Shown: one piece after another, positions 1-36,288 of the stretch | How positions within the stretch are numbered: position 1 is the stretch's first letter | Layout: each line of letters starts with the position of its first letter | Assembly (NCBI GenBank): GCA_964620955.1 | Contig: CAZUKH010000002.1 | Location: 78,451-140,611 of the forward strand | DNA: 62,161 nucleotides | DNA from: an uncultured Candidatus Saccharibacteria bacterium | GTDB lineage: Bacteria; Patescibacteriota; Dojkabacteria; J137 | Reading direction: 5' to 3' | Made by a program: the position numbers and the translations under genes | The notes under the pieces: generated by a model | Seen by the model: the letters and a program-made list of their open reading frames with translations, nothing else | The model's database searches: none | What the model was told of the DNA's origin: nothing

Positions 1-1
1 T

Positions 2-415
2 CACACTGCTGTAGATTTAAAAAAAATTTCCAACAAAAAAGAACGAATTGAAAAAGTGATTTTAGCAGCATGCAAGCAAAGTGGTAGAGTAAGTATACCT
101 ACATTTAACAGCGGAATAGAATTTAGCCAAATTGCCCCACAATCATTTCCAAAAGAAATTACAGTATTTATGACTCTTCCAGGTAACGAAACTACGATTA
201 ACAATGTCATAAAAGATTCACGGCAACTAAACTTACAAAACTATTCTACAATAAATATTATTATTGGACCGGAGGGAGGTTTTTCAAAAAAAGAAATCAA
301 TTATGCTAAAGAAAAAAACTGGGTTTTTGCAAGCTTTTTTGAAAACGTTTTAAGAAGTGAAACAGCGGCTATAGCCACAGTGAGTATAATGATATCTAGT
401 ATCTATTCCCTCTAA
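2..415 (+). CDS. rsmE: 16S rRNA methyltransferase RsmE, C-terminal part (5' end lies outside the window)
   Basis: The frame is open from the window edge. It contains ...IEKVILAACKQSGRVSIP... and IIIGPEGGFSKKE...VLRSETAAIA, typical of the RsmE SPOUT family. Confidence 0.8.
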   Translation, partial: HTAVDLKKISNKKERIEKVILAACKQSGRVSIPTFNSGIEFSQIAPQSFPKEITVFMTLPGNETTINNVIKDSRQLNLQNYSTINIIIGPEGGFSKKEINYAKEKNWVFASFFENVLRSETAAIATVSIMISSIYSL

Positions 416-3933: not shown

Positions 3934-6863
3934 TAAAACAAAGTCATATCAAAATTAAAGTAAATACTTTCTAAAGTTGAATATACTAGTGGCCCTGAAT
4001 CTTTTGCGTAATCATGCATTCCAGTTTGGTCAAACAATCCTCGAATTTTATTAGAGTCGAAGGTTTTAAATTGGTGTGGGTGACTTAAGTATGTTACAAC
4101 CTGTGGTGAATCCATAATCGGTTTGTAGTTTGCCAAAAATCTCTTTACTAGCTCGTTAGCATCAAACCAGTAAGAATCTGCGCCATTATTTGGGAATTCC
4201 CATAAATTAAGTGTTGGTGGCAAAGAAGAATTTATATCATTTATATTTGGTTTATACGGCTTAGTAGTTATTGCCAAGTTCCATGGTATTGGAGTGCTGG
4301 AGCCAACAGATGGATTTAGTAGCCCTGATGTTCTGCCCGATGAATCAACTGAAATACCTGAGTCTTGTAAAGCTTTTAAAACATTAGGCCCAGACATCCA
4401 AGCACCTGATCTAAAAGATACAGGTTGACCAATACCTCTTTCTTTAAACTTTTCTATTGACCACTCAAAAACTTTCATTAAATCTTCGTACGAATACGCT
4501 TGAAGCTTGGTTTCATCGCGTCCTATGCCAACAATTTCAGATCCAGGGACTTTTTCAACTTCTACTTGCGCAAGCAAGTCAGGATACAAATGAATATGTA
4601 GGCCGATTTCCTCACCAAACTCTGCCCTCCTTTGTAGTATCCAGTTTGTGTAATACGTTGCATGATCAGGAGGCACTGGAAAAGGAGAAAACTGGTTTTC
4701 AACATAAATTCTTGGATTGAAATAATGTGTAATTTTTGCTCCGTATTTGTTAACAATATCGGCTATATCTATTAAGTCAACCTGATTAACCCCAAAGCCT
4801 TCCCAGTCTAATGACCAGTTTACAAAAATTGGGTATGAAACAAAGAACCGGTTTTTTTTGCTTTCATATATTTGTATGCCGTTTTTTACTTCAATATCTA
4901 TAGTTTCAATAAAGTATGTACCCACAGGTAAATCTGCCAGAGGAACTGAGTAATTAAACGGTGTACTTGTTTGAAACTCATCAACTAAGCCACTTTTGAG
5001 TTCTTTTCCTGCTTCGTCTGTGATTGCAAATCTAACTTTAGAAAGTGAAGATTTTTCTGACACTAAAGCAAAACTTAAAGTCGAGTCTCGATTATCGTTA
5101 AATCCTTTTAAATGCCACTTTTTAAGCAAATTCAACGAAATTTCTTTAAATTCGGGTTGTGCAAGCTCTACATCAAAAGTACTTGCATAAGATTGTAGGT
5201 CTTCTACAACTTGTTTTTCGGAAGGGTACTGATTACCAAAATAAAAAAAGTATCTTGTGCCTCTACTTTCAGCCAGCTTAAATTTTACAGTAATTTTATC
5301 CGATCCTGGGTTTTCAATTACTGTAGGTATTTCTTTATATTCTTGGTTAAAACTAATAACTCTAATATCTTTACCATCCTGAAATAGTGAATAACCTTTT
5401 GAAATGTATTCTGCATGGTTGATACTAAAAGCTATTGTTTGTCCTGAACTTTGTACCATACCAATCGGTATGATGATTTCTGCACGGCCTAAATACTCGT
5501 CATTCCACCACGATTTGCCTGTGGTATCAAGCACCCTTTCAAAGCTTGATTCTGCCCTTATTTGTAACTGGCTTGTATAGTCACGATTTTGATTATACGC
5601 ATAAGCTATTAACGAAAAGGATAACAGTCCAAGTGTAATTAGTGATAAAGCTTTTTGACTAGAATTGTTTGATAAAAATCTTTTGTTTAATATGTTGGTG
5701 AATTTAACAGCAATACCTGTTGCAACTACAGTTATTAACCAAAATGCGATTATTGAAATGCTTCTGTTAAAATAATATATTGCATAGCCTGCAAGAAAAG
5801 CTTTTGCAAAAAGTATTATTACAATATGCCAAAAGAAGAACAGCATTGAATTTTTACTTATAAACTCAATAACACTTCTAATTATTTTATTTTGTAAAAC
5901 AGGAGTTTTTACTATTCTATCTAGAACTATTAACATTAAGTATGCAGCGGCTATTCCGATAGTAATAAAAACTAACGAAGGAGGAAATCTACCTGTATAA
6001 ACTGAAAAGTTAAGAAAATCGATTTGTTGGTTGAGTTGAAATATAACACTGCCTAGAGCTGCAAAGACTGCTACTGCCATTGTTAAAACCCCTAATTTAA
6101 ACTTGCTGTGAGCCTTATTGGCATACATTCCATAAAGAAGTTTACCTACAAATATCCCTATTAAAAACACCATGAAATACTGCAGCATTGGGAAGGTATG
6201 GGTGTCGGAGTATCCTGCGAAAATTGATTTAAAAGTGTTTGACCTTAAATCTCCAAGATCAATGTTATAGGTAATATATCCCCAAAAATAAAATATGATA
6301 GATAATAATGCTGTTAAGAAAATGCTTTTAGAAACTTTTCTATAAAATCCAGAAAATAATGCTACAGAAAGTGTTAAAAATACAAACGGAATAAGGTACT
6401 CCGTATAGGGTGGTATTCGCTGAAAAAAGAAAATCCTGACTAGATCTCTTATCCACTCTAAACTTGGTGTACCGTAAAATCCAAGGCCGAAAACCCATAA
6501 AGAAAGGCCAGCAGTTAAGTAAAAAGCTACTAAAATTATAAGCGATTTTTTAATAAGTTTGCTTTTTTTAACACTAGTAAAACCTTTTGTTGCTAGGAAG
6601 TTTCCGCTGCCTGAAAGTAGTAAAAACCAGGTAAAGCAAAATGTGCCCCCAGCTAAAGAAATATATTGAATTAAACTATTAGACTTAAAACTAAAAAAAA
6701 TTGCTGTAACGTGGGTAAAAATCATTAATAGTATTGTTGCAGCTTTTAACCAGTCTAAAGACTGGATTCTAATTTTTAAAGGCAAAGACTTTGTAACTTT
6801 TACATAATCTTTTGTAAGCAGTGGTTTTTGTTTAGTCTTTTTCGGACCAGGTGATTTTTTCAT
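3933..6863 (-). CDS. Large fusion membrane protein: N-terminal multi-TM acyltransferase-like (DUF1624/acyltransferase-3-like) domain plus extracytoplasmic polysaccharide-deacetylase-like domain
   Basis: RIQSLDWLKAATILLMIFTHV followed by about 10 TM helices. The C-terminal soluble part carries NWSLDWEGFG, LHIHLYPD and YLSHPHQF, which are metal-hydrolase-like motifs. Its stop/start abuts the downstream gene at 3933. Confidence 0.5.
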   Translation of the reverse strand: MKKSPGPKKTKQKPLLTKDYVKVTKSLPLKIRIQSLDWLKAATILLMIFTHVTAIFFSFKSNSLIQYISLAGGTFCFTWFLLLSGSGNFLATKGFTSVKKSKLIKKSLIILVAFYLTAGLSLWVFGLGFYGTPSLEWIRDLVRIFFFQRIPPYTEYLIPFVFLTLSVALFSGFYRKVSKSIFLTALLSIIFYFWGYITYNIDLGDLRSNTFKSIFAGYSDTHTFPMLQYFMVFLIGIFVGKLLYGMYANKAHSKFKLGVLTMAVAVFAALGSVIFQLNQQIDFLNFSVYTGRFPPSLVFITIGIAAAYLMLIVLDRIVKTPVLQNKIIRSVIEFISKNSMLFFFWHIVIILFAKAFLAGYAIYYFNRSISIIAFWLITVVATGIAVKFTNILNKRFLSNNSSQKALSLITLGLLSFSLIAYAYNQNRDYTSQLQIRAESSFERVLDTTGKSWWNDEYLGRAEIIIPIGMVQSSGQTIAFSINHAEYISKGYSLFQDGKDIRVISFNQEYKEIPTVIENPGSDKITVKFKLAESRGTRYFFYFGNQYPSEKQVVEDLQSYASTFDVELAQPEFKEISLNLLKKWHLKGFNDNRDSTLSFALVSEKSSLSKVRFAITDEAGKELKSGLVDEFQTSTPFNYSVPLADLPVGTYFIETIDIEVKNGIQIYESKKNRFFVSYPIFVNWSLDWEGFGVNQVDLIDIADIVNKYGAKITHYFNPRIYVENQFSPFPVPPDHATYYTNWILQRRAEFGEEIGLHIHLYPDLLAQVEVEKVPGSEIVGIGRDETKLQAYSYEDLMKVFEWSIEKFKERGIGQPVSFRSGAWMSGPNVLKALQDSGISVDSSGRTSGLLNPSVGSSTPIPWNLAITTKPYKPNINDINSSLPPTLNLWEFPNNGADSYWFDANELVKRFLANYKPIMDSPQVVTYLSHPHQFKTFDSNKIRGLFDQTGMHDYAKDSGPLVYSTLESIYFNFDMTLF

Positions 6864-12310: not shown

Positions 12311-14095
12311 TTAACTTCTTTTGTTGTTACTGTTTATAAGATTAAGTGCAGAACTAAAGTCTAAAGGTTTTTCCAACTGCCCTGCCGAAATAAAAAATAT
12401 TTGATCAGCATTTTCAATTGTGTTAAGCCTATGAGCAATAATTACTTTCGTTGTTTCTTTAGGAAGTTTTTGAATAATTTCTTCAAGCAACTGCTCTGTA
12501 ACTGTATCAATATTGGCTGTAGCTTCATCGAGGATTAAAAGCTTTGGCTGTCTTAGCAAAATACGTACAAAAGCAATAAGTTGTTTTTGCCCTAAGCTAA
12601 TATTATCCGAGCCACCTTTAATTTGAGTTTGCAAACCATTTTCAAACCTTTCAATAAGTTTAAGTAAACCTAGTTCTTTAAGTTTAGATTCCAACAAATT
12701 ATCGTTAATATCAGTAAGCTCAGTATTACCATACTTAATATTTTCCGCTAAACTGCCTGTAAACAACAAAGGTTCTTGCAAAATAAAACCAATAATTTTT
12801 GTAAGCTCAGATTTTTTGTAACTTCTAATATCTTTACCATTTAACAATACCTTACCTTCTGTGGCATCATAGAGCCTTGCCATAAGCGCTGCTGTAGTGC
12901 TTTTACCGCCTCCCGTAGGACCTACCAATGCATAGGTTTTTCCTCGTTCAAGTTCCATATTCATTTTCTTTATTACCATATCGTCTTTTATATAGCCGAA
13001 ACTTACATTCTCAAATGAAATAATTAATTTCGACTTTTCGTCAGGTTTATCGCTAGAATCGATTTTTACAAGGTTACTACTTAGCCCAAGAATTCGTCGC
13101 ACTCTACCCCAAGCTGCAACAGCGGTTTGTAATTGGCTAAACAGAGTAGCCATTTCTCTTAACGGATTAAAGAATGATTCTGAATATAAAAGAAAACTAA
13201 TGAGTGTTCCAAATTCGGGAATTGAGCCAGCTTTTATTGGATCCAAAATAAGAAGCTCTATTCCAAAAATAAAAATCAACATGCTTGCGATAGAGCCAGA
13301 GAAATTGTACACAGGTTGAAGAATTCCGTTTGAAATACTAGCCCAGGTTACAGCCCTTCTATTGTGTTCATTAGCTTTTTCAAAAGATTTCCTAAAGTAA
13401 TCTCTTCGATTAAATACAACAGTAACTCTAAAGTTAGATAAGCTTTCTTGAATTTCAGCAGATAGCTCTCCTAGCTTTTGAAGACTATTTGAATTAGTTG
13501 ATCTTATCCAAGGCGAAAGAACAAGCGTAATTATTAAAATAATGCCAAAAACGCCGAGCGCTATTAAGCCCAGTTTGTAATTTAAAATAATCATTACTAT
13601 TCCGATACCAATTATTACAAATATATTTCCAAAAAATCTTAATATGGTTTCGGAAAAAGCTTGATTTAGCTTTTCGGTATCATTATTAACTCGAGAAATT
13701 AAATCTCCAGTTTTATTTTCGTTAAAGAATTGCAAAGGCAGCGATTGAAGCTTATTAAAGATATCATTACGAAGCTTAAATAAAATCACTTGACCTACCC
13801 TTCCCATAATTTTGATTTGCTGGTAACTGGCAATTGCCCCAACTATATAAATTAAAAGTAAAAACAATACAGATTCGATTAACCCTTGTTTATCGGCACT
13901 CGGAATAAACTTGTTTGTAATATCACCTATTAAAAAAGGCGTAACTATAAACACCAAAGAGTTAACCATTAAAAAGAAAAAAGCAGTTACGACACTTTTT
14001 CTTGATCCTAAAAGATATTTGTACAAACCCATAATCGAAGTGATTATGCCTGCCCGTGTTTTATTTTTATCATCTAAATCTAACCTGTAATTCAT
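12311..14095 (-). CDS. ABC exporter, fused permease/ATPase (MdlB/MsbA-like half transporter)
   Basis: Six-TM N-terminal domain, Walker A GPTGGGKST, signature LGQKQ, Walker B LLILDEATA. Confidence 0.9.
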   Translation of the reverse strand: MNYRLDLDDKNKTRAGIITSIMGLYKYLLGSRKSVVTAFFFLMVNSLVFIVTPFLIGDITNKFIPSADKQGLIESVLFLLLIYIVGAIASYQQIKIMGRVGQVILFKLRNDIFNKLQSLPLQFFNENKTGDLISRVNNDTEKLNQAFSETILRFFGNIFVIIGIGIVMIILNYKLGLIALGVFGIILIITLVLSPWIRSTNSNSLQKLGELSAEIQESLSNFRVTVVFNRRDYFRKSFEKANEHNRRAVTWASISNGILQPVYNFSGSIASMLIFIFGIELLILDPIKAGSIPEFGTLISFLLYSESFFNPLREMATLFSQLQTAVAAWGRVRRILGLSSNLVKIDSSDKPDEKSKLIISFENVSFGYIKDDMVIKKMNMELERGKTYALVGPTGGGKSTTAALMARLYDATEGKVLLNGKDIRSYKKSELTKIIGFILQEPLLFTGSLAENIKYGNTELTDINDNLLESKLKELGLLKLIERFENGLQTQIKGGSDNISLGQKQLIAFVRILLRQPKLLILDEATANIDTVTEQLLEEIIQKLPKETTKVIIAHRLNTIENADQIFFISAGQLEKPLDFSSALNLINSNNKRS

Positions 14096-15831
14096 TGTGT
14101 AGATCTTTGTGAATTAAATATCTGTTTATATTCAAACGATTTTGCCAAGAGGTTTTCGTGGTTACCTTTAGCTACAATTTCTCCTTCCATTAACAAGATT
14201 ATCTCGTCGAAGTCTTTGACTGAATTTATTTTTTGAGTTACGACTACAAGCGTTGTATTTGGATAATTTTGCTCTAAATTTTTGAAAATACGCTTTTCTG
14301 TTTGGATATCTACTCTTGCTGTAAAATCATCTAATAACAATATTTTAGGGTTTAAAGCAAGTGCTCTTGCAAGTGTAAGCCTCTGTTTTTGCCCCCCCGA
14401 TAAACTTGCGCCTCTTTCAGAAATGACTGTATCTAACTTTTGAGGTAAAGCATTTACAAAATCAAAAAATTCAGAGGTTTTTATTGCTTTCCATATTTGT
14501 TCTTCAGGTATTTCTGCATTCCTAAATGCTATGTTTTCTCGAATGGTTGAATTAAAGATAATACTATCTTGGAAAACCATTCCAATTTGTGAATATAAAC
14601 TATCTAGATTATAGTCTTCTAGCTTTACTTCATCTATTTTTATACTACCTGCATTTGGCTTAATAAGACCAGTAATAATATAAAAAAGTTGAGTTTTACC
14701 TGCTGCTGTAGGTCCAATAATTCCTACTCTAGAACCGCTTTGTACATTTAAACTTACATTGTTAAGAATACTTTTGTTTTTGTAATTTAAAGACACGCTT
14801 TCTAATGATATTTTACCTTCAATTGCTTTAACTGTAGTGCCAGTACTTTTTTGCTCTTTTGAATTAATTACTGCTGCAATTCTTTGGTATGTGGCAAACG
14901 CCCTGCCAACAGAACTTCCTAAGAAACCAAGTAACAGTACTGGTGTAATAAATGTAAAAATATAAGAAAAAAATGCAGCAAAATTTCCAGTGCTCAAAGT
15001 CCCATCAATAACTTGTACGCCTCCATACCCAAGGACTATTAGGTAAGCTATATTTAATACTGTATTGATAATTGGTACTAAAGCTGCAAACCCATTAATT
15101 ATTTTTATTCCAATAAATTTTGTTTCTTCATTAACCTTAGTAAACTTATTTTTTTCAACCTTAACTGAGTTTAAAACTCTAACAAGTTGTGCCCCAACAA
15201 TACTTTCACTAATGACTCTGTTTAACTTGTCAATAGCCTCTTGAGCCTTAGTAAAATACTTTTCAATTCGCTTAAAAATAATTATAAAAGAAAAAAGGAG
15301 TACTGGAATTGTTAAAATTATTGGTAAGGCAAGCTGCCAATTAATAGTGAGTAAAAGGACTGCACTTCCAAAAAGCTGAACCACAGCAGCGAAAGCAATT
15401 ACCAGCCCTTGAGAGATAAACGTTTTAACTGCATCAACATCCGAAGTAAGATTTGTTAATAATTTAGCATTTGTAACTTTATTAATATATTCAAATGATT
15501 GTACCGAGAGCTTTTTAACGATTTGACTTCTTAACTCTGCTGCAATATTTTCAGTTACATAATTACTTAAAAGCGTTTGTAAAACTCCCACTATAAATAT
15601 TGCTACTACAACCCCACCAAAAAGCTTTGCGTAATCATTTTTATCATATGAAAAGGTTGCGAGTGAGTCTATTGCTAAAGAATTAATCTTTGGCAGAAGA
15701 AGCGTTAAGATATTTAGCATCATTGCTAATATCACTACTACAACAATTCCTCTCCTAAATTTTTTCAAGAAAGAAAACAAGTTTGGTGTTTTTTCTTTTT
15801 TATTTTTTTGTACTGAAGAAAATTTTGCCAC
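14092..15831 (-). CDS. ABC exporter, fused permease/ATPase (partner half transporter)
   Basis: Walker A GPTAAGKTQ, signature LSGGQKQR, Walker B ILLLDDFTA. A 4-nt overlap with the downstream paralog suggests a heterodimer. Confidence 0.9.
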   Translation of the reverse strand: MAKFSSVQKNKKEKTPNLFSFLKKFRRGIVVVVILAMMLNILTLLLPKINSLAIDSLATFSYDKNDYAKLFGGVVVAIFIVGVLQTLLSNYVTENIAAELRSQIVKKLSVQSFEYINKVTNAKLLTNLTSDVDAVKTFISQGLVIAFAAVVQLFGSAVLLLTINWQLALPIILTIPVLLFSFIIIFKRIEKYFTKAQEAIDKLNRVISESIVGAQLVRVLNSVKVEKNKFTKVNEETKFIGIKIINGFAALVPIINTVLNIAYLIVLGYGGVQVIDGTLSTGNFAAFFSYIFTFITPVLLLGFLGSSVGRAFATYQRIAAVINSKEQKSTGTTVKAIEGKISLESVSLNYKNKSILNNVSLNVQSGSRVGIIGPTAAGKTQLFYIITGLIKPNAGSIKIDEVKLEDYNLDSLYSQIGMVFQDSIIFNSTIRENIAFRNAEIPEEQIWKAIKTSEFFDFVNALPQKLDTVISERGASLSGGQKQRLTLARALALNPKILLLDDFTARVDIQTEKRIFKNLEQNYPNTTLVVVTQKINSVKDFDEIILLMEGEIVAKGNHENLLAKSFEYKQIFNSQRSTQ

Positions 15832-16687: not shown

Positions 16688-16963
16688 GTGCGTAGAAGAC
16701 AAGTTAAAGGCCTTCGATTCTTAAGGCAAAGACCCATTCTGAATTATATAGTTGACTTTATTCAACTAGATTCAAAATTAATAGTCGAAATTGATGGTAT
16801 GAGCCATAATGACCTAAATGTCGCAAGAAAAGACGCAATAAGACAGAAAGAGTTAGAGAGTCTCGGTTTCAGGTTTTTGAGATTCGCAGAGTTTGAAGCT
16901 TCCCATAAAATTGATCAAGTCTTGGATACTTTGTATTTATGGCTTGACGAAAACTGGCGTTGA
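16688..16963 (+). CDS. DUF559 endonuclease-domain protein (Vsr-like fold)
   Basis: RFLRQRPILNYIVDF...LIVEIDGMSH...RQKELESLGFRFLRF is the DUF559 signature. Homology continues upstream of GTG 16688 (HFARKNRKSPTPGESKFWSRV, back to about 16628) where no ATG, GTG or TTG is present, so the start is uncertain or the gene is 5'-degraded. Confidence 0.7.
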   Translation: MRRRQVKGLRFLRQRPILNYIVDFIQLDSKLIVEIDGMSHNDLNVARKDAIRQKELESLGFRFLRFAEFEASHKIDQVLDTLYLWLDENWR

Positions 16964-17014: not shown

Positions 17015-18463
17015 CTATAAGCATTTAGAGAGTTTTTCAGCAAATTTAATTACTCCAAAATCATCAAACCACTTACCCATTACTTGCATACCAACCGGTA
17101 GGTTTGCAGAGTCCATACCAATGGGTATGTTAATACTTGGTATTCCTACAAGGTTTGCTGTAACAGTATAAATGTCAGAAAGATACATTTCTAGTGGGTT
17201 ATCTGTCTTTTCACCAAGCTTAAATGCAGTTGTTGGAGAAGTTGGCGTTATTAATGCATCTACTTGTCTAAATATTTGTTTAAATTCCTGCTTTATTTTT
17301 GTTCTTACTTTACTTGCTTTTTTATAAAATTGATCTGAGTACCCTGCACTTAAAACATAGGTTCCTATCATAATTCTTCGTTTGACTTCGTCTTCAAAAT
17401 ATTTTGTTCGTGAACTAAAAAGATTCTTTAAATAGTTATCCGAGTTTTTTTTGCCATATCTAACACCATCATATCTGGCCCTGTTTGCCGAAATTTCTGC
17501 AGGTACTAAAACGTAATATGCTGCCAAACTATACTTAACGCTAGGTAAGCTAACATTTTTAACCTCAAAACCATTAACTTTTAAATTTTCAATAACAGAG
17601 TTTATTTTTGATTCAATTTCTTGATTTAATCCTTTTCCATAAAATTGACTTGGAATACCTATTGTTTTAATTTTGCTATGGGTTGGAGCTTTATTGTGAT
17701 CGCTTGAAGTAGGATCGTGGGCATCAATTCCCTCCATAATGTTTTCAAGTAATTCTACATCTTTAGCATGCCTTGCGAAAAATCCTGGAGTATCAAATGA
17801 AGAACCCATTACTCCTATGCCAAACCTAGAGTTACGACCATAGGTAGGCTTAAAACCATAAAGACCAGTCATACTCGCTGGTTGCCTTACAGAACCACCA
17901 GTATCCGTGCCAAGAGAGAAAAACCCTACTCCAGCCGCCATACTTGCTGAAGAACCAGAGCTACTCCCTCCTGGTGTTCTTGTAAGATCAAAAGGATTTT
18001 TCGCAGGACCAAAGCCTGAATTTTCACCACTTCCTCCAAATCCCCATGGATCACAGTTTGTTTTTGCAATTAAAATTGCTCCATTCTCAAGACACTTTTG
18101 CAAAACTGTCCCAGTGTATGGAGCTATAAAATCTTCCATAAATTTCGACCCGAAGGTTGTTTTAGTGTTTTTAACGAGGTAAAGATCTTTTGTAGTGAAA
18201 GGAATACCAAGCAAATTCAAGTTGTCAAGCAAATCGCCTTTCGCAATTCTTGAATCTAAACTTTTTGCAGCAGATATTGGATCGTATTGGCTGATATTTG
18301 TTTCTCCATCGAAAATAGTTATGAAAGCATTTGTTAATTGCTGAATCTCTTTCGCTCTTTTAATATGCTCTGTAACTAAATCAAGAACTGTGAGTTGTCG
18401 ATTTTTTAAAGCTTGAACAGTTTCTTTTATAGAAGGAAGTTTAGGAATATCAAGTTTTTTCAT
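17015..18463 (-). CDS. gatA: Glu-tRNA(Gln)/Asp-tRNA(Asn) amidotransferase subunit A
   Basis: Amidase signature GGSSSGSSASMAAG, plus GTDTGGSVRQPAS and a typical GatA N terminus. Confidence 0.9.
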   Translation of the reverse strand: MKKLDIPKLPSIKETVQALKNRQLTVLDLVTEHIKRAKEIQQLTNAFITIFDGETNISQYDPISAAKSLDSRIAKGDLLDNLNLLGIPFTTKDLYLVKNTKTTFGSKFMEDFIAPYTGTVLQKCLENGAILIAKTNCDPWGFGGSGENSGFGPAKNPFDLTRTPGGSSSGSSASMAAGVGFFSLGTDTGGSVRQPASMTGLYGFKPTYGRNSRFGIGVMGSSFDTPGFFARHAKDVELLENIMEGIDAHDPTSSDHNKAPTHSKIKTIGIPSQFYGKGLNQEIESKINSVIENLKVNGFEVKNVSLPSVKYSLAAYYVLVPAEISANRARYDGVRYGKKNSDNYLKNLFSSRTKYFEDEVKRRIMIGTYVLSAGYSDQFYKKASKVRTKIKQEFKQIFRQVDALITPTSPTTAFKLGEKTDNPLEMYLSDIYTVTANLVGIPSINIPIGMDSANLPVGMQVMGKWFDDFGVIKFAEKLSKCL

Positions 18464-18512: not shown

Positions 18513-19610
18513 TTAAAGTAGACCAACCATGCTTCTAGACAATTTCTCGAATCCATATCTTTGAGCTGTTTCAATTGCATTTACCCTAATGTTTTGGGTA
18601 TTATGCCAATTCTGATAGATATTTTTTATTTTTTCAAGCATTTCTTCTTTTGATGTGACTATATAGCCGTTATATCCGTCTTGAATAAATTCGCTAGCCC
18701 CCAATGTATTACTACTAACTACAATGCAGCCCTGTGACATTGCTTCTAACATAGTTATACCAAAAGATTCTCGAATACTCGGCATCAAAAATATGTCAGC
18801 TTTTTGTGCTTTATTAATAAATTCTTTGGAATCATATTTGTGAAAATCTATAAGAAGATTATGCAGATTTCCCGAAGGCTTAAACCCGTTATTTGTTCCA
18901 ATAATTTCGAATTGGTACTGCGGCATTTGTAAAGCAAGGTACTCAACCCAATCAAGTCTTTTTACCGGGTCAAGCCTGCCCATAAACAGCAAATTATTAT
19001 ATGGGTTTCCACCAAGCCTTGCTAAGGATTTAGACTTTTGATTTAAAAAAATGTCGTCTATTGCATGTGGAATAAAAACTGTTTTTCGTTGTGGTACAAA
19101 TCTTTTTTTTAATGGATTTATTTCCCACTGTGCTATTCTAATTATTTTTTTATAAAGCTTTAGTTCCCACCAACCTATTAAAATATCGTATAGTCTGTCG
19201 AAAACTTTGATTATTGAAGACCTGGAAGGGTCTTTGTAAAAAGGACCGTGGGGTGTTAAAAATACTTTTGCTCCAATAAGCTTACCTATTATAACTCCCA
19301 TTAGTGAATGGGGATATCTATAGCCATGAATGAATATGTATCCAGGGCGCAAACGCAACAATTGAAATTGAAAGAAAAAAAATATTGCGTTTGCGCCCAG
19401 GTTAAACCATATTTTAAATCTATGTAGTTTTACTCCAAAATACTCTTCTTCTTTAGCAGAAGTTTTATTAGTACTTTTAATTTTGTTTGATGAAAAAATA
19501 TGGACTTCGTGACCTGCATTTCTAAAGGCCCTTGCATCCATTTCTACACGTTTCCAAATCCCGCATGCAGAAGGGTAAGAATACGGGCATATAAGCAAAA
19601 TTTTAGACAT
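18513..19610 (-). CDS. Family 4 (GT-B) glycosyltransferase
   Basis: The N terminus MSKILLICPYSYP..GIW and the C-terminal PSIRESFGITMLEAMSQGCIVVSS are Glycos_transf_1 features. The ORF is open to 19658, but Met at 19610 fits the family N terminus. Confidence 0.8.
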   Translation of the reverse strand: MSKILLICPYSYPSACGIWKRVEMDARAFRNAGHEVHIFSSNKIKSTNKTSAKEEEYFGVKLHRFKIWFNLGANAIFFFFQFQLLRLRPGYIFIHGYRYPHSLMGVIIGKLIGAKVFLTPHGPFYKDPSRSSIIKVFDRLYDILIGWWELKLYKKIIRIAQWEINPLKKRFVPQRKTVFIPHAIDDIFLNQKSKSLARLGGNPYNNLLFMGRLDPVKRLDWVEYLALQMPQYQFEIIGTNNGFKPSGNLHNLLIDFHKYDSKEFINKAQKADIFLMPSIRESFGITMLEAMSQGCIVVSSNTLGASEFIQDGYNGYIVTSKEEMLEKIKNIYQNWHNTQNIRVNAIETAQRYGFEKLSRSMVGLL

Positions 19611-19661
19611 AGGGTATTTTATGTTACTATGATACTTGTAACATACTAGCATTATCATATT

Positions 19662-20000
19662 GTGTTTAGAAACCTAAATTTAAATTATCCAAAAAGTAGT
19701 GGAATATTCTATGAAGATGAAGACAGTGACAAATCGATTCAAATTTTAAGGAGCATTATTTTAAGAATGACGTCTTCAATGCCTGAAAGGGTTCCACTAG
19801 CAGCTTTAATAGAAGAATGCTTGAGACAAAATGTAAAGATTTGCCATTCAGAACTAAGCGAAAGTGCTTTCATAAAGTATTTTCCTGATCTCAACTTAGT
19901 TGTATTTGATGCTATCAAGATTGCGGGGCGTGATGAAAATTCTTCTATAGTACTGGTTCATCAGATAACCTTAACACTAAATTCTATCAATAATAGTTAA
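19662..20000 (+). CDS. Hypothetical protein upstream of the CDPS-like gene
   Basis: The ORF has a GTG start at 19662. An internal Met at 19767 (MTSSMPERV...) would leave a more plausible divergent promoter region. Confidence 0.4.
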   Translation: MFRNLNLNYPKSSGIFYEDEDSDKSIQILRSIILRMTSSMPERVPLAALIEECLRQNVKICHSELSESAFIKYFPDLNLVVFDAIKIAGRDENSSIVLVHQITLTLNSINNS

Positions 20001-20099
20001 TTGATTCTAAAAAATCATAATGAATCTCTATTACAGGTGTTATAATGATACGTTTCTGTTTATTTTTATGTAAAAGAGGATGAAAATTACATACTAATT

Positions 20100-21083
20100 A
20101 TGATATTTGACCCCAAACAAATAGTTGATACGATCAATTTATTAGTCAAAGATACCGAGCGAATTAGTCAGAATATTTCAGCTTTTTCGCCAGATTATCA
20201 TGCACTCGAGTCTGAAGAAGTACAAAGTTTTTTAAATTCTAATCCTAAAATGGGAAGAGAGGTTGACATTGGTAGCAACTATCTCCCTATGATAATAGAA
20301 GAAATCACAGGAATTGCGCTTGACCCAAAAATCTATCGTGACTCAGACGCATTCTTTGGAATAAGTCTAGCACACAAATATTTTAGCAAAAAGGTTTTGC
20401 GACATTTTATCGCATATGGTAACAATACTTTCAGAACTTTCAATGTACTTTTAATGGATGTACCCCATGTATTTAATTATATTATGTTCTCACCAGATCT
20501 TGATCTCGAATCGTTAGATATTAGTAAAATTCTGAAAACACCACTTGCAAAGGAGTCTTTAGCAAAAACAAAACGTATTTCTGATGAAACAATGGTGGCT
20601 CTAAATAGAGCCAAGAACGACGTAATACAAAAAGACCCAGTTAAAAGTTCAGGTAATAATATTAGATTAATTTCGTTTGTTGAACTTCTTCAAGATAATT
20701 CGTTTCTTGAATTAACACAAGGTATATATAAATATGCCGGCGATAATGTCGAATTCTGTAGAGACCTATACAACCTCATTGTTCATAGTATAGGAGGACT
20801 CATTGACATGAGGTTAAAACACACCAAAAATATCAGCTCCGAGAATCTAGCCAAATTCAAGATGGGATTAATGAATTATATAATTTTGGAACTTGCATCC
20901 CTCATCTATTTAACAGAAATCTCACTTTATAGAATTGAGCTAGATCCGACCAGAGAGTTTCTGACTAAAAAAAACATGTATGATGGCAAGTATCCTGATT
21001 TATGGGAGAAGTTAAAGATAAAAAACCCTAGTAGGGGACACATCAACACACACCCCAAAGGTCTTCTAAAAAAGTCTTACTAA
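20100..21083 (+). CDS. Cyclodipeptide synthase (CDPS)-like protein, tRNA-dependent
   Basis: FFGISLAHKYFSKKV (compare AlbC IGISAGNSYFSQKN, YvmC GISPFNSRFS). FRTFNVLLMD. IRLISFVELLQ...NVEFCRDLYNLIVHSI (AlbC FRVRSLSELQ...DAEFATACEDMVRAVV). GLMNYIILELASL (AlbC GLNYVLAEAPLF, the Y-x3-E motif). SLYRIELDP (AlbC LCYHIDTP). Confidence 0.65.
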   Translation: MIFDPKQIVDTINLLVKDTERISQNISAFSPDYHALESEEVQSFLNSNPKMGREVDIGSNYLPMIIEEITGIALDPKIYRDSDAFFGISLAHKYFSKKVLRHFIAYGNNTFRTFNVLLMDVPHVFNYIMFSPDLDLESLDISKILKTPLAKESLAKTKRISDETMVALNRAKNDVIQKDPVKSSGNNIRLISFVELLQDNSFLELTQGIYKYAGDNVEFCRDLYNLIVHSIGGLIDMRLKHTKNISSENLAKFKMGLMNYIILELASLIYLTEISLYRIELDPTREFLTKKNMYDGKYPDLWEKLKIKNPSRGHINTHPKGLLKKSY

Positions 21084-21092
21084 TCAACAAAC

Positions 21093-21875
21093 TTAAAGTA
21101 ATTCCCACATAGTCTGATGCAATGCTTTTAAACTTCTTGCTACATGGTCTGACCTTATCAACGTTGCCAAAGGCTGCTCTGCATTCAACTGAATTATTGC
21201 AACTTTATCCTCAAAAAATATATAATCTGCGAAATCAAATCCAGAGAAAAACTCCTTTTTAGGTAGAAATTTGTAATGATAATTTTTGTGTGCGAGTTTT
21301 ACAACTTTCCTTGCATAGTCAGTATCGACAAGTATATCCCAAACATACCTATCCGGGTTAGATTCAAATATTAAATTCCAATCTGACGGAGTCTCCTCCG
21401 AAAACAATTTGTAGTACTTCTCGAGATCAGCAAACGAATAGTAAGTGTTAATCTTCATTAAGATACTATAAATATACTTGATACCTTCCGTTCCACTGTA
21501 ATATTTTACGTCAACTGAATTATCGTCCTTACTCTCAGGCACCATCTTTTGGATCGCTCCAATAACATTTGGTAAATTATCCTCAAGCTTTTTGACCCTC
21601 CACTTTTTTTGCTCCAGTAAAAACTTTAGCTTCTCGGGATCTTCAGCAATAACCATTCTTCTTTCACCATAGTTTGTTTGACTAACTAAGCCCTTTTTAA
21701 CAAGTTCTTCAACATTGTTATGAGTTGTCGATCTTTTTATATTTGTTTCTCGAGATAAATTCATGATAGTATTAGGACCTGTTCTTAAAAGAGTCAAATA
21801 CAGTTGAACTTCACGTTCAGTTAAATTAAACTCTTCAAGAAAATCTTGTAAATGTTTATCAATCTTTTGCTTCAT
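21093..21875 (-). CDS. TrmB-family transcriptional regulator
   Basis: The N-terminal wHTH EREVQLYLTLLRTGPNTIMNLSRETNIKRSTTHNNVEELVKKGLV...GERRMVIAEDPEKL is typical of TrmB. Confidence 0.75.
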   Translation of the reverse strand: MKQKIDKHLQDFLEEFNLTEREVQLYLTLLRTGPNTIMNLSRETNIKRSTTHNNVEELVKKGLVSQTNYGERRMVIAEDPEKLKFLLEQKKWRVKKLEDNLPNVIGAIQKMVPESKDDNSVDVKYYSGTEGIKYIYSILMKINTYYSFADLEKYYKLFSEETPSDWNLIFESNPDRYVWDILVDTDYARKVVKLAHKNYHYKFLPKKEFFSGFDFADYIFFEDKVAIIQLNAEQPLATLIRSDHVARSLKALHQTMWELL

Positions 21876-22035: not shown

Positions 22036-22818
22036 CTACTCTTTAGCAGAAATCCAAATAAGCTTGTGTAAAGCTAAAAATCCCTTTGCTATTGAAGCAG
22101 AGTTAATAACAATAATGTTAGATTCATTCGCAGAGCCGTCTAGTATCGCAACCTCATCACCAAAGACAGCAAAATTCATATTCATTAAATCTTTTGAAGG
22201 TTCGATAAATTTAAAATGAAGCCTTTCTGCCTTATAATCAAGGCTTCTTGAAACTGGCGTATCTAAAACAATACCATAAACCTCAATGTTTTCATCTTGA
22301 CTATAAGATTGAACAAATTCTTCAACAAGATTTTCGTTGCCTCTAATATATCTTTCAATATCTGCTAAAAAAGTTATTTTACCTTGCTTAATTGCCCTCC
22401 TAAAAAGCCGTGCAATTTCTTTACTAGTTTTGTAATACTTGACCGCCATTATAGAATTAATACTGGACTCTGGAACAGCGTTTTGAATAACCGATACTAT
22501 TGATGGCAATCCTTCAATAAGTTTCTCAACTCTCCATTTCTCCTCTTCTAAAAGCAAATTTAACTTTTGAGGATCTTCAGCAACAACCACCCTCCTTTCA
22601 CCTGTAGATGACTCGCTAACCATTCCTCTTTCAACCAACCGCTGAACAATATGATGGGTTGTAGAACGTTTAACCTTAGCTAAAGCAGAGAGCTCGGCAA
22701 TACTGCAAGGCCCACTATTTAACAAAGTGATGTATAAGATTATTTCCTTTTCTTCAAAACCAAGTTTTTGTAAGTAGTTTTGAACGGATAGGTATGAATC
22801 AAAATTTAATAATGACAT
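22036..22818 (-). CDS. TrmB-family transcriptional regulator (tandem paralog)
   Basis: Same length (260 aa) and same architecture: EKEIILYITLLNSGPCSIAELSALAKVKRSTTHHIVQRLVERGMV...GERRVVVAEDPQKL. Confidence 0.75.
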   Translation of the reverse strand: MSLLNFDSYLSVQNYLQKLGFEEKEIILYITLLNSGPCSIAELSALAKVKRSTTHHIVQRLVERGMVSESSTGERRVVVAEDPQKLNLLLEEEKWRVEKLIEGLPSIVSVIQNAVPESSINSIMAVKYYKTSKEIARLFRRAIKQGKITFLADIERYIRGNENLVEEFVQSYSQDENIEVYGIVLDTPVSRSLDYKAERLHFKFIEPSKDLMNMNFAVFGDEVAILDGSANESNIIVINSASIAKGFLALHKLIWISAKE

Positions 22819-23011: not shown

Positions 23012-23302
23012 TTGATGACATATTCTGACTATTCACTTTCTGCAGAAGAATACGAAGAATTTCTTAAAACTAAGCGTTCTACAAAGCTTCATAATATTTG
23101 GGAAGACCTGCTAAGAAGAATAGACGACACCGAACTACAAGAAGAAGCAAAGTCCAAGGGTTACGAGCTTGTAGACAATCCAGATGTTGAAGATGATGTA
23201 ATAGCATTTTATAAGATGCTTGTAATTCCAGAATCTTCTCCAAGGCTCAACCGGGTTTGGAGTGAAGATCTCTATCCTTTTGTTGTTTGTTTAAAGGACT
23301 AA
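23012..23302 (+). CDS. Hypothetical acidic protein (96 aa)
   Basis: ORF with adjacent TTG 23012 and ATG 23015 starts. Confidence 0.5.
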   Translation: MMTYSDYSLSAEEYEEFLKTKRSTKLHNIWEDLLRRIDDTELQEEAKSKGYELVDNPDVEDDVIAFYKMLVIPESSPRLNRVWSEDLYPFVVCLKD

Positions 23303-27074: not shown

Positions 27075-28385
27075 ATGGAAAGAACTCTTGCTTTAGAAAC
27101 ACTAAAAAAAGTTGGAGAAAAAGTTGTACTCAAAGGCTGGGTTGCTAATCAAAGGGTCATGGGCAAAATGACCTTTGTGGATTTAAGAGACAGGTCAGGC
27201 GTTGTTCAATGCGTTGGGTTTGATACGATGAAAGATTTAACTAGTGAATCTGTAATTGAAATTGTTGGAATAGTTAAGAGCAGACCAGAAAAACAGGTGA
27301 ATGAGGAAAGCAATACAGGATCTGTTGAGATTGAGGTTGATGACTATAAAATACATAGCAAAGCAGAAGCACTCCCAATTCAAGTTAATGCCAAAGCCCA
27401 AAATGAAACTGAAATTGATGCAAGACTTGATTATAGGTGGATTGACTTGCGTAAACCTGAGAAAAATATGATTTTCGAGGTTTGGACGGAGTTAGAAAAA
27501 GCATTTAGAGAATACTGGACATCGAACAAATATATAGAAATTCATAGTCCAAAGCTTTTAGGTGCTCCAAGCGAGTCAGGTGCTGAGGTTTTTGAAGTTA
27601 AATACTTTGACAGAACAGCTTACCTTGCCCAATCTCCTCAATTTTATAAGCAGATGGCTATGGCATCAGGGTTTGAGCGTGTTTTCGAAGTCGGACCTGT
27701 TTTCAGAGCAGAAAATTCAAATACTATAAGGCATACAACTGAATTCACAGGCTATGATGCTGAGATTTCTTATATTGATTCCCACGCTGATGTAATGTCT
27801 GAACTTGAAAAGCTTATTGTAAAAGGTATTACGAGTGTAAAAGCAAACTGTTCGGAGATGATAAGTCAAACCATAGGTGTCAATATCGAGGTTCCGACGA
27901 TTCCATTTCCTGTGTTAACAATCTCAAAAGCAAAAGAGATCTTAGGTAAACTCGGCATTAAGAGCGAGAAGTCAGGTGATTTAAGCAGTGAGGAGGAAAA
28001 AGCTATTGGTGAATATGTATCCCGCGAACTGAGTCATGACTTTGTTTTTATAACTGAATATCCACATGAAGGCAGGGCCTTTTATCATATGCGACTTGAA
28101 ACAAATAATGAACTAACAAAGGGATTCGATTTACTTTATAAAGGTCTTGAGATAGTCACTGGCGCTCAAAGGGAACATAGATATGAAGTACTCGAAAAAC
28201 AAGCTCAAGAAAGAAAAATGAATCTTGATCTTATACAGTTCTATTTAGATTTTTTTAGATACGGCTGTCCTCCCCATGGTGGCTTTGGAATGGGGCCGAG
28301 CAGGCTGCTTATGAAGCTTTTAAATCTAGGAAGCATTAGAGAAACAATGTATTTGTTTAGAAATCCAAGAAGGTTAAATCCATAG
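27075..28385 (+). CDS. aspS: Aspartyl-tRNA synthetase, archaeal/eukaryal type (probably non-discriminating)
   Basis: OB-fold N terminus, class II motifs FRAENSNTIRHTTEFTGYDAE and GGFGMGPSRLLM, and a compact 436-aa length. Confidence 0.9.
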   Translation: MERTLALETLKKVGEKVVLKGWVANQRVMGKMTFVDLRDRSGVVQCVGFDTMKDLTSESVIEIVGIVKSRPEKQVNEESNTGSVEIEVDDYKIHSKAEALPIQVNAKAQNETEIDARLDYRWIDLRKPEKNMIFEVWTELEKAFREYWTSNKYIEIHSPKLLGAPSESGAEVFEVKYFDRTAYLAQSPQFYKQMAMASGFERVFEVGPVFRAENSNTIRHTTEFTGYDAEISYIDSHADVMSELEKLIVKGITSVKANCSEMISQTIGVNIEVPTIPFPVLTISKAKEILGKLGIKSEKSGDLSSEEEKAIGEYVSRELSHDFVFITEYPHEGRAFYHMRLETNNELTKGFDLLYKGLEIVTGAQREHRYEVLEKQAQERKMNLDLIQFYLDFFRYGCPPHGGFGMGPSRLLMKLLNLGSIRETMYLFRNPRRLNP

Positions 28386-34773: not shown

Positions 34774-36288
34774 TCAGGACTTTATGTTTATCATTTGTTG
34801 TGCCAAGTGTAAAAGAGTTTCTTTTTTATTAAGGATTGGATCTTCAATAACTTTATCTAAAAGCGAATTAAGAATTTGGCCAATTTGTTGCCCTGGAGAT
34901 AACCCCAGATGGTTAATAAGATCCTGTCCCGATACGTCAAGATCAGTGACTTTAAGTGCCATGTCTAAGGCTGTAACTTCCGATACTCGCTCAGCAAGCA
35001 CTTCGATTTCTTGCGGATTAAATTCGCTTTTTGCATTGGCAGATGCATCAGCAATTCTGAGTTTAAACAAATCATTTAATGCTTCTACTCCACCAACATT
35101 CTTGATGAGTCTCCTTATCGCTGAATCTGTCCATCCCCCTGGAGCTTCTTTAGATGATACTGATTTTATGTGTGTTTGAATTTCATCTTTTGTTGCATTT
35201 TGATAATCAAAATCGTCCATTTTTAATTTTCTCCAGTCCGCCGATGGATAATAAAACATGTGCCACCTTACAAGTCTCGACACATAGTCGATTTCTGCTT
35301 TTGGAAACTTAAGCCTTGTTAAAATTTCTTTTGTCATTTGAGATCCTAAAGTATCGTGACCATAAAAGTGAACCCCCTTTTCATCTTCAGATTTGGTTCT
35401 TGGTTTTGCGATATCGTGAAAAAGTGCAGCAAGCTTTATTGAATCTTCTGCTAAATCGCATGCTTTTAAAGAATGATTCCAAACATCCTCAGCGTGAAAC
35501 TTAGGCTGTACAACTTCTTTTCCTTCTAGCAATTCTGGAATAAATATCTTTAATATGCCCGCTTCATCGAGTAGTTTAATGCCTTTAGATGGTACCGGCG
35601 ACTTATAAATTATTTTTATAAATTCATCTCTAAAACGTTCGATAGAAACTTGGGCAGTAATATGATTAGTTTTTGTAATAGCCTCAAAAGTATTTTGCTC
35701 AATTTCAAAATTTAGTTGAGAAGCAAACCTACAAGCACGTACACCCCTTAGCCCATCTTCCGAAAACCTTTCAAGTGGATCACGAACGGCTTTAATTGTT
35801 CTGTTGTTAAGATCTGATATACCATTAAATGGGTCTTCCAATACCTCCTGAATTGAAATATCTTGCTCATCAAAGTGTTGTAGGTTTAAAGCGATTGCAT
35901 TTATTGTAAAATCTCTTCTTGCGAGATCATCATAAATATTTTTAGAAAATTCAACTTTAGATGGCCATCTTCCTCCAACATAATCTGCTTCTGATCGATA
36001 TGTAGTCACTTCTACATCAAATCTTTCACCATTTTCATCCTGCGTTACAACTGTGATTGTTCCAAACTTTGCACCTGTCGGTATGGATTTTTTAAAAAGT
36101 TTAACAATTACTTCAGGGTAAGCGTTTGTTGCTATGTCGAAATCTGAAGGATGCCTACCGAGAAGAATATCTCGAACGCTCCCGCCGACTAAAAAAGCTT
36201 CGAAATCGTGCTTCTGCAAAGTTTCTGCAATATCGATAACGTAAGAAGGTATTTTCTCAAGAAAATCTCCAATGGTAATATTAATCAT
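34774..36288 (-). CDS. cca: CCA-adding tRNA nucleotidyltransferase with HD domain
   Basis: LVGGSVRDILLGRHPSDFDIATNA (the PolyA_pol head), RDFTINA, and the HD motif AALFHDIAKP. Confidence 0.85.
   Translation of the reverse strand: MINITIGDFLEKIPSYVIDIAETLQKHDFEAFLVGGSVRDILLGRHPSDFDIATNAYPEVIVKLFKKSIPTGAKFGTITVVTQDENGERFDVEVTTYRSEADYVGGRWPSKVEFSKNIYDDLARRDFTINAIALNLQHFDEQDISIQEVLEDPFNGISDLNNRTIKAVRDPLERFSEDGLRGVRACRFASQLNFEIEQNTFEAITKTNHITAQVSIERFRDEFIKIIYKSPVPSKGIKLLDEAGILKIFIPELLEGKEVVQPKFHAEDVWNHSLKACDLAEDSIKLAALFHDIAKPRTKSEDEKGVHFYGHDTLGSQMTKEILTRLKFPKAEIDYVSRLVRWHMFYYPSADWRKLKMDDFDYQNATKDEIQTHIKSVSSKEAPGGWTDSAIRRLIKNVGGVEALNDLFKLRIADASANAKSEFNPQEIEVLAERVSEVTALDMALKVTDLDVSGQDLINHLGLSPGQQIGQILNSLLDKVIEDPILNKKETLLHLAQQMINIKS

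Follow-up and report, generated by a model that had tools for sequence, protein, structure and literature searches.

A divergent cyclodipeptide synthase-like protein of a Candidatus Saccharibacteria contig and its clade with aspartate aligned at the cyclisation tyrosine position

Genes and features of the locus

The DNA analysed here, referred to as the window, is a stretch of 62,161 nucleotides from an uncultured Candidatus Saccharibacteria bacterium (contig CAZUKH010000002.1, positions 78,451 to 140,611 of the forward strand) with a G+C content of about 34%. Its gene at 20100-21083(+) encodes a 327-aa protein related to tRNA-dependent cyclodipeptide synthases (CDPSs), and this protein, together with the TrmB-like gene that lies convergent to it, is the subject of this work. 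A first-pass annotation, made from the sequence alone, had described it as a divergent CDPS-like gene in a genome of the candidate phyla radiation (CPR) type, flanked by a glycosyltransferase of family 4 (GT4) and two TrmB-family genes and lacking the classical tailoring genes. The CPR-like host was supported by the GatA protein of the window, which is 64% identical to a protein from a Candidatus Saccharibacteria metagenome-assembled genome (MAG). The GT4 gene and the two TrmB-family genes were recovered by domain search, and neither a cyclodipeptide oxidase nor a P450 nor a methyltransferase gene was found within about 6 kb of the CDPS gene. Farther neighbours are genes for GatA, a DUF559 protein, two ABC exporters, a LysM protein and a class II aminoacyl-tRNA synthetase (aaRS). 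The features of the locus are as follows (ORF, open reading frame; HMM, hidden Markov model).

20100-21083 (+): CDPS-like gene, 327 aa, ATG start (ORF call); divergent long-branch member of the X-D-P clade described below
20364-20366 (+): CDPS key codon, S89
20373-20375 (+): CDPS key codon, H92
20877-20879 (+): CDPS key codon, Y260
20889-20891 (+): CDPS key codon, E264
20943-20948 (+): CDPS key codons, D282-P283
20100-20288 (+): N-terminal extension of 63 aa, only in the window protein (alignment with the clade)
20490-20543 (+): insertion of about 15-18 aa (SPDLDLESLDISKILKTP), residues 131-148, only in the window protein, after the LLMDxPxxxN motif (family and HMM alignments)
20087-20098 (+): leader 12-mer TTACATACTAAT, directly 5' of the CDPS ATG
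21093-21875 (-): TrmB-like gene 1, 260 aa, convergent to the CDPS gene (Pfam TrmB, PF01978, E = 9.2e-12)
22036-22818 (-): TrmB-like gene 2, 260 aa, tandem paralogue of gene 1 (36% identity)
23012-23302 (+): acidic 96-aa ORF, divergent from the TrmB genes, kept beside the module in some loci
19662-20000 (+): upstream 112-aa ORF, GTG start, gene status uncertain (ORF call)
18513-19658 (-): GT4 glycosyltransferase

Homology to cyclodipeptide synthases and predicted fold

The profile-HMM check proposed with the first-pass annotation gave a mixed result when the window protein was used alone: its similarity to CDPSs is above chance, but it scores under the curated cut-offs. The Pfam CDPS family (PF16715) matched residues 82-124 with E = 0.0025 and 18 bits (cut-off 27), and NCBIfam TIGR04539 gave E = 2e-6 and 27.5 bits (cut-off 45), the match being confined to the region of the Ser motif (residues 80-124). 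The sole sequence match in the PDB was 9gun, a putative CDPS of P. gingivalis (E = 2.9e-4, residues 84-299), and a word-indexed search for homologues, queried with this protein alone, returned nothing but the query. An exhaustive HMMER scan revealed 36 relatives, mostly 230-260 aa long; E was below 1e-10 for 22 of these. PF16715 was matched by all 27 aligned relatives (E ≤ 0.01), and typical members of the clade pass the NCBIfam cut-off with 50-55 bits against 45. Some are named 'tRNA-dependent cyclodipeptide synthase' by JGI; the family is annotated by automated pipelines, and its peculiarity is undiscussed in the searchable literature.

The family profile matched essentially every solved CDPS. 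The E-values were 1.5e-30 for 9gun, 8e-16 for Fdum-CDPS (5ocd), 5e-15 for SsBcmA (9j61), 7e-13 for BtCDPS, 3e-11 for AlbC, 3e-10 for YvmC and 3e-6 for Rv2275. A structure was then predicted with AlphaFold (AF2). The single-sequence model had a predicted local distance difference test score (pLDDT) of 33 and was discarded; the alignment-based model used instead reached a pLDDT of 90.4 and a predicted template-modelling score (pTM) of 0.89. It has a class-Ic-aaRS-like Rossmann fold. When it was compared with the PDB by Foldseek, the top 45 matches were all CDPS chains (probability 1.00), followed by tyrosyl-tRNA synthetase (TyrRS), and the target-normalised template-modelling (TM) score was highest for SsBcmA (0.84). 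Judged from the family profile and the predicted fold, homology to CDPSs is unambiguous. The proposal of a divergent CDPS-fold homologue was thus borne out by the family profile, the AF2 model and Foldseek; the first-pass annotation had named a missing CDPS match and a different fold as grounds for rejecting it, and both a CDPS profile match and the CDPS fold were found.

Catalytic residues and the position of the cyclisation tyrosine

The residues of the window protein were mapped on an alignment of 37 family members with four structures of the NYH subfamily and four of the XYP subfamily (45 sequences), and the AlbC sequence was confirmed against 3oqv at 100% identity. The Ser of the GFxGIS motif, S89, corresponds to AlbC S37 and to BcmA S43; it is invariant in A1, and P0044 has Thr. 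AlbC N40 corresponds to H92, a position with His or Asn across the clade. Y260 aligns with AlbC Y178 (mostly Tyr in the clade) and E264 with AlbC E182, which is invariant in 45 of 45 aligned sequences. The catalytic Ser and the Y-x3-E motif of the CDPS family are therefore present in the window protein, as the first-pass annotation had proposed, and the cyclisation Tyr is absent: AlbC Y202-H203 correspond to D282-P283, with Asp across the 30-sequence clade (Glu once, in P0007) and an invariant Pro. The first-pass annotation had read the subfamily-defining positions as 'H … Y-R'. This register was wrong, since Y277-R278 lies five residues upstream of D282-P283, and the signature offered for the clade has to be replaced by its real mark, the loss of the cyclisation Tyr.

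The register of D282-P283 was derived from several lines of evidence. HMM alignments to 9gun (EIYPG), Fdum-CDPS (EVYPS) and SsBcmA (MVYPG) placed E-x-D-P on x-x-Y-P without gaps, and D282-P283 occupy the two columns of Y-P in the four XYP structures. Between Y-x3-E and D-P there are as many residues as between Y-x3-E and Y-P in Fdum-CDPS. Because the published lists of pocket residues correspond (200, 204, 206 and 207 of AlbC; 204, 208, 210 and 211 of SsBcmA), BcmA Y206-P207 can be equated with AlbC Y202-H203. In P0035 and P0036, the relatives that branch off most basally, Y-P occupies the very column of the D-P of the clade. The gapless alignments, the spacing from Y-x3-E, the pocket lists and the basal Y-P forms together support this register. 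In active CDPSs, Y202 is reported to be strictly conserved; the AlbC variant Y202F stalls at and accumulates the dipeptidyl-enzyme, and Y202 has been given a proton-relay role in cyclisation (PMC5935735).

The P1 pocket is conserved across the clade (F85, G87, L/I/V117, M119, F193, S/A/G267, L/I268 and the invariant E280), and the P2 pocket is variable. The clade also has conserved residues of its own, namely P122, N126, Y270, E286, K290 and RGH 312-314, of which E286, K290 and Y270 are next to position 282.

One clade member, P0044 (L012 8001-8714, NCBI GCA_040961035.1), has Thr in place of the catalytic Ser (GITIRN) and an M17 leucyl aminopeptidase gene directly upstream. This adjacency is not conserved, as no CDPS was found in 80 loci fetched via the M17 peptidase beside P0044. 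As a sole query, P0044 found nothing in the GTDB representative genomes.

Phylogenetic placement and novelty of the clade

A neighbour-joining tree was calculated from BLOSUM62 distances over 227 columns with 100 bootstraps; being distance-based, with few references, it does not resolve the exact place inside XYP. The four NYH references were split from all other sequences with 100% bootstrap support. The 30 sequences with D/E-P, the window protein included, formed a clade (98%), 9gun joined the family at 99%, and the basal branches were occupied by the Y-P forms (9gun, P0036 and P0035) and a handful of atypical forms (A-H, N-P and S-K). On this sequence evidence, we regard the X-D-P clade as a branch that arose from XYP-type CDPSs by replacement of Tyr with Asp.

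The XYP signature at AlbC positions 40, 202 and 203 is any residue, Tyr and Pro (PMC11580168). The window protein has H92, D282 and P283, so that positions 40 and 203 fit and 202 does not. The NYH signature (N40, Y202, H203) is not present, the NYH structures score weaker than the XYP structures with the family profile, and in the tree the protein is placed with XYP rather than NYH. Because it lacks Tyr202 and falls under the curated HMM thresholds, it is filed as a CDPS-fold homologue of the X-D-P variant clade and not as a bona fide XYP member.

The 2018 survey assigned all 765 CDPSs to NYH or XYP, and the 2026 review contains only these two subfamilies. In the searchable literature we found no D-P clade, no third subfamily, no link between a CDPS and TrmB and no paper on 9gun, which agrees with the earlier suggestion that the protein may belong to an undescribed clade. 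Within this literature, two findings appear to be new: the Tyr-to-Asp replacement fixed in a monophyletic clade and the recurrent pairing with a specific TrmB-like gene. The X-D-P clade is found mainly in Patescibacteria-like metagenomic genomes.

Features specific to the window copy

Members of the clade normally start at an 'MIIE' motif, which aligns with M64 of the window protein. Relative to its own clade, the N-terminal extension is 63 aa long and not about 80 aa, as given by the first-pass annotation, and the basic C-terminal tail (RGHINTHPKGLLKKSY), listed there as another peculiarity, is a motif conserved across the clade. The codon score was 0.206 for the core and 0.279 for the extension, with a mean of 0.27 for real genes, and 0.279 was matched by just 2.8% of spurious stop-free stretches. 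No homologue of the extension was found in any fetched locus. AF2 modelled the extension as helices with a pLDDT of about 82-85, and the insertion was modelled with a pLDDT above 90. The identity to the proteins of L010 is far lower for the CDPS (34%) than for the adjacent TrmB (63%) and the 96-aa ORF (60%), which points to accelerated evolution of the CDPS.

The 12-mer TTACATACTAAT is present in a single copy in the 62-kb window. A comparison of 108 loci recovered it only from L001/L002, directly before the CDPS start of the closest relative (L001 151-162), whose protein has no more than about 40% identity to that of the window. The 12-mer might be a translational or regulatory element. Its placement and the gene-like codon statistics of the extension support the start at 20100. 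A Shine-Dalgarno test of this start was uninformative, as the genome hardly uses such sites. Nearly no gene of the window has a Shine-Dalgarno motif, and many have a TATAAT-like box about 7-12 nt before the start codon, for example those at 34774-36288(-), 36296-37738(-), 17015-18463(-) and 14092-15831(-); this suggests that mRNAs with no leader or a very short one are widespread in the genome. A six-codon mini-ORF, 20080-20097(+) (ATG AAA ATT ACA TAC TAA), ends 2 nt before the CDPS start and overlaps the 12-mer, and a TATAAT box lies upstream of it at 20041-20046.

The small upstream ORF mentioned in the first-pass annotation is present as a 112-aa ORF with a GTG start; it is doubtful as a gene and is not conserved with the module. 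It has no match in Pfam, NCBIfam or PADLOC and no homologue in any fetched locus, and its codon score of 0.202 is reached by 15% of spurious stop-free stretches, so that the coding statistics are ambiguous.

The TrmB-like partner and the gene neighbourhood

A convergent TrmB-like gene of 256-264 aa was found directly 3' of the CDPS gene in 10 of 14 informative contexts. Orthologues of TrmB1 (33-63% identity) are convergent to the CDPS in L001, L009 (partial), L010, L011, L012, L019 and L022. P0005 has a convergent 262-aa TrmB-family product, taken from a gene call without DNA, L111 matches the partner profile strongly, and the window itself is the tenth pairing. The 3' ends of the two genes are -31 to +20 nt apart. 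The genes on the opposite flank differ in every locus, which indicates that the pair survived many rearrangements. The four contexts without the pairing are L007, L004, L110 and L112, and the basal Y-P member P0035 also has no TrmB neighbour (a single case). A GNAT gene stands beside the CDPS in L007 (1300-2433(-), 60% G+C), and L004 has a GNAT gene at 5314-5751(+) in a mobile-looking region. In L003, a SET-domain gene, 1-294(+), overlaps the start of the P0003 CDPS gene. The GNAT and SET-domain neighbours are possible tailoring enzymes for some members of the clade.

TrmB1 has the winged helix of its family (PF01978, 45 bits against a cut-off of 25.6). Its C-terminal part of about 150 aa, beyond residue 110, showed no similarity in Pfam, NCBIfam or the PDB, and the TrmB/TrmBL1 equivalog models, which include the sugar-binding effector domain, gave only 21-28 bits against cut-offs of 500-650. 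TrmB gene 2 (22036-22818) is absent from the other loci. No terminator-like site was found between the convergent CDPS and TrmB1 genes of the window, and antisense overlap of these nearly abutting genes is therefore possible.

Locus L104 is syntenic with the window (96-aa ORF, TrmB and GT4) and carries an unrelated 517-aa protein gene in place of the 112-aa ORF and the CDPS. Since L104 keeps GT4 and TrmB without a CDPS, these two genes are the conserved backbone, and the CDPS is an accessory gene preferentially kept beside this TrmB. The first-pass annotation had called the context simply unusual; the adjacent TrmB is in fact the conserved partner of the clade, and the GT4 belongs to the backbone. 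A functional link between GT4 and the CDPS, such as a glycosylated product, was rejected on the same grounds. We also considered whether the 517-aa ORF is a hidden CDPS and rejected this, as it had no CDPS profile match even with filters off and was homologous only to an ORF of L103. The two copies (L104 4267-5817(-) and L103 4248-5801(-)) represent a family of about 460-520 aa without a Pfam match; they share 38% identity, and in Patescibacteria MAGs without a CDPS both face the same TrmB orthologue in convergent orientation.

The 96-aa ORF at 23012-23302(+) has 60% identity to L010 9888-10175, a distant relative at L022 6508-6801 (E ~1e-7) and no match in Pfam or NCBIfam. These acidic proteins of about 96 aa end in '…YPFVVCLK' and lie beside TrmB with or without a CDPS, L104 2791-3084 being a case without one. 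Genes for aaRSs are found only a few kb away from the CDPS in the window (27075-28385(+)), L010 (5663-6985 and 12808-14217), L009 (792-2750) and L012 (2606-5107). They include class II genes of the Asp/Asn/Lys type, and in L009 an AlaRS gene is directly upstream. By a rough estimate only, this proximity may have arisen by chance, the genomes being small, or may hint at substrate supply.

PADLOC gave no defence-system assignment for the CDPS, and its TrmB matches were limited to the generic winged helix. Scans of viral contigs revealed no relatives of the CDPS and hence no sign of a phage-borne origin. Among the farther genes, the DUF559 (Vsr-like endonuclease) ORF, 91 aa, 16688-16963(+), matched only profile positions 25-107 of 109 and may be a truncated remnant. 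The GT4 protein, 18513-19658(-), has a short match (residues 276-330, 28.5 bits, cut-off 26) to Pfam PF20706, 'GT4 in conflict systems', which overlaps the generic GT1 domain; there was no PADLOC result for it.

Proposed activity and alternative explanations

We consider the window protein to be a fast-evolving CDPS-fold enzyme of the X-D-P clade, derived from XYP enzymes, dependent on aminoacyl-tRNA, paired with a TrmB-like gene and most likely still forming cyclodipeptides; with the evidence from alignments and the model, we give this reading a probability of roughly 60%. The CDPS fold, Ser89, Tyr260/Glu264 and the conservation of the P1 pocket come directly from the results above, and the chemistry is what we infer from them. 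The first aminoacyl-tRNA, probably the same substrate throughout the clade, would acylate Ser89, and the reaction would proceed by a ping-pong mechanism via aminoacyl- and dipeptidyl-Ser89, the dipeptidyl-enzyme arising by attack on the second aminoacyl-tRNA. The carboxylate of Asp282 may replace the proton shuttle of the missing Tyr at product release, and the most likely product would still be a cyclodipeptide. The gene lies outside any tailoring cluster and, in most genomes, tail to tail with the TrmB-like gene, and the TrmB-like partner would most plausibly control CDPS expression or sense the CDPS product.

Several observations weigh against this reading. The window copy is the longest branch of the clade and scores under the curated HMM cut-offs. 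It has lost a nearly universal basic residue of CDPSs (K/R to L234) and a Trp conserved in the clade (W to Y106). The active-site position of Asp282 is deduced from alignment and homology only, and cyclisation without Tyr is an assumption in view of the literature on the conservation and role of Y202. In the searchable literature, no member of the clade is biochemically characterised. The TrmB link is asymmetric: in representative Saccharibacteria/Patescibacteria MAGs, six of six TrmB orthologues had no CDPS within 3.5 kb. In the upstream regions of CDPS and TrmB at seven loci, in AT-rich DNA, no convincing operator or palindrome common to both genes was found.

The main alternative, which we think unlikely, is that no diketopiperazine is made at all and that the acyl- or dipeptidyl-enzyme is either hydrolysed, giving a linear dipeptide, or relieved of its acyl group by a different acceptor. 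The behaviour of the Y202F variant and the strict conservation of Y202 in active CDPSs would fit such altered chemistry, as would the fixation of Asp/Glu across a clade with 98% support, which indicates a selected function and not drift, the clade-own residues beside this position (E286, K290 and Y270) and the GNAT or SET-domain genes that flank the CDPS where TrmB is lacking. However, no other catalytic element of CDPSs is missing, and the Glu responsible for the second acyl transfer is among those retained; proton relay is within the chemical capacity of a carboxylate, and no gene providing an acceptor is consistently linked. A far less probable explanation is that the protein is an ordinary XYP CDPS that was misaligned, with Tyr277 (or, for example, Y270) as the true cyclisation residue. 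The first-pass annotation had indeed aligned SLYRIELDP with AlbC CYHIDTP, most clade members share Y277, the clade also conserves Y270, a Tyr close to the P1 region, and MAFFT shifts the NYH references by two columns. Fdum-CDPS (KYDFEVYP) and 9gun (GYTCEIYP), however, hold both Tyr residues, and it is the Tyr before Pro that is catalytic; HMM and MAFFT agree without gaps on the register, with identical Y-x3-E spacing, P0035 and P0036 have Y-P in the D-P column, and Y277, five residues off on a beta strand, would face the opposite side.

A decaying or neofunctionalised window copy in a clade that may otherwise be active also seems improbable. It would agree with the long branch, the low identity to L010 when compared with that of TrmB and the 96-aa ORF, the unique 63-aa extension and the insertion of about 15-18 aa, the residues lost at positions 234 and 106, the scores under HMM cut-offs that the relatives pass, and the different gene occupying the slot in the syntenic L104. 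Nevertheless, the ORF is intact, S89, Y260, E264, D282, P283 and most P1 residues are kept, the codon statistics of both core and extension are gene-like, the AF2 model is confident even in the insertion, and the 5' leader is conserved. A cyclodipeptide-forming enzyme remains our preferred reading. Beyond it, we put forward a broader and tentative hypothesis that we do not expect to hold in full: the X-D-P clade could be a third, functionally distinct branch of CDPSs concentrated in Patescibacteria, in which Asp changed the outcome of the reaction (a linear dipeptide, aminoacyl transfer or another proton relay). Its product might be sensed by the novel C-terminal domain of TrmB, and the two genes together might act as a compact module for signalling or metabolite production, fed by aminoacyl-tRNA, in ultra-small episymbionts.

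Significance

CDPS enzymology rests on four catalytic residues, and one of them, Tyr202, is regarded as strictly conserved and indispensable for ring closure. A clade that is monophyletic, under purifying selection and equipped with Asp at this position is a natural experiment on the cyclisation mechanism. It would show either that a carboxylate can stand in for the phenol relay or that the fold was recruited to another aminoacyl-tRNA-dependent reaction, and both outcomes would widen the rules for genome mining of CDPSs. Most of the interest would lie in the possible consequences of losing the cyclisation Tyr. A stand-alone enzyme with one regulator and no tailoring enzymes, in organisms of minimal metabolism, hints at an unmodified product that acts in signalling or host interaction rather than in classical secondary metabolism. 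The window copy also illustrates that curated HMM thresholds miss divergent members of the CDPS family.

Comparison with known systems

TrmB1 matches the TrmB of P. furiosus (3qph) over residues 8-109, where an N-terminal winged helix leads into a coiled-coil. For its C-terminal 150 aa, no similarity to the sugar-binding domain of archaeal TrmB could be detected. The CDPS-like protein shares its Rossmann-like fold with the catalytic domains of class Ic aaRSs, and TyrRS structures 2cyc and 1tyd were the first non-CDPS Foldseek matches (ranks 46 and 50). The similarity is far weaker (TM ~0.39), and the window protein, unlike TyrRS, has the acyl-Ser of CDPSs. The CDPS fold is not known to carry the ATP-binding signature motifs of aaRSs.

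With the NYH enzymes AlbC, YvmC, Rv2275 and BtCDPS, the protein has in common the fold, the catalytic Ser and Y-x3-E. It differs from them at all three signature positions (N40 to H92, Y202 to D282 and H203 to P283) and by the NYH split in the tree, supported by 100% bootstrap. A CDPS in a reduced CPR genome, considered notable in the first-pass annotation, has a precedent in ParcuCDPS of Parcubacteria bacterium RAAC4_OD1_1 (7qaq and related entries). ParcuCDPS also comes from a CPR genome without an obvious tailoring cluster; it has been characterised, makes cHP/cHE, and crystal structures exist. It is itself of the XYP type and, unlike the clade, keeps the canonical Tyr; there is an entry for its Y189F mutant, and Y189 presumably corresponds to AlbC Y202. 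Its match to the clade is only weak (profile E ~2e-11, Foldseek E ~6e-4), which assigns it to a different XYP branch.

The closest resemblance is to the XYP enzymes 9gun, SsBcmA (9j61), Fdum-CDPS (5ocd) and Nbra-CDPS (5mlq). They share with the window protein the fold (target-normalised TM 0.75-0.84), the G-x-S nucleophile motif, Y-x3-E, Pro at AlbC position 203, a non-conserved position 40 and the XYP side of the tree. The clade differs from them in having Asp (Glu once) for the cyclisation Tyr (AlbC Y202, BcmA Y206), in conserved residues of its own and in the usual pairing with a TrmB-like gene, and the window copy is further distinguished by its 63-aa extension and its insertion.

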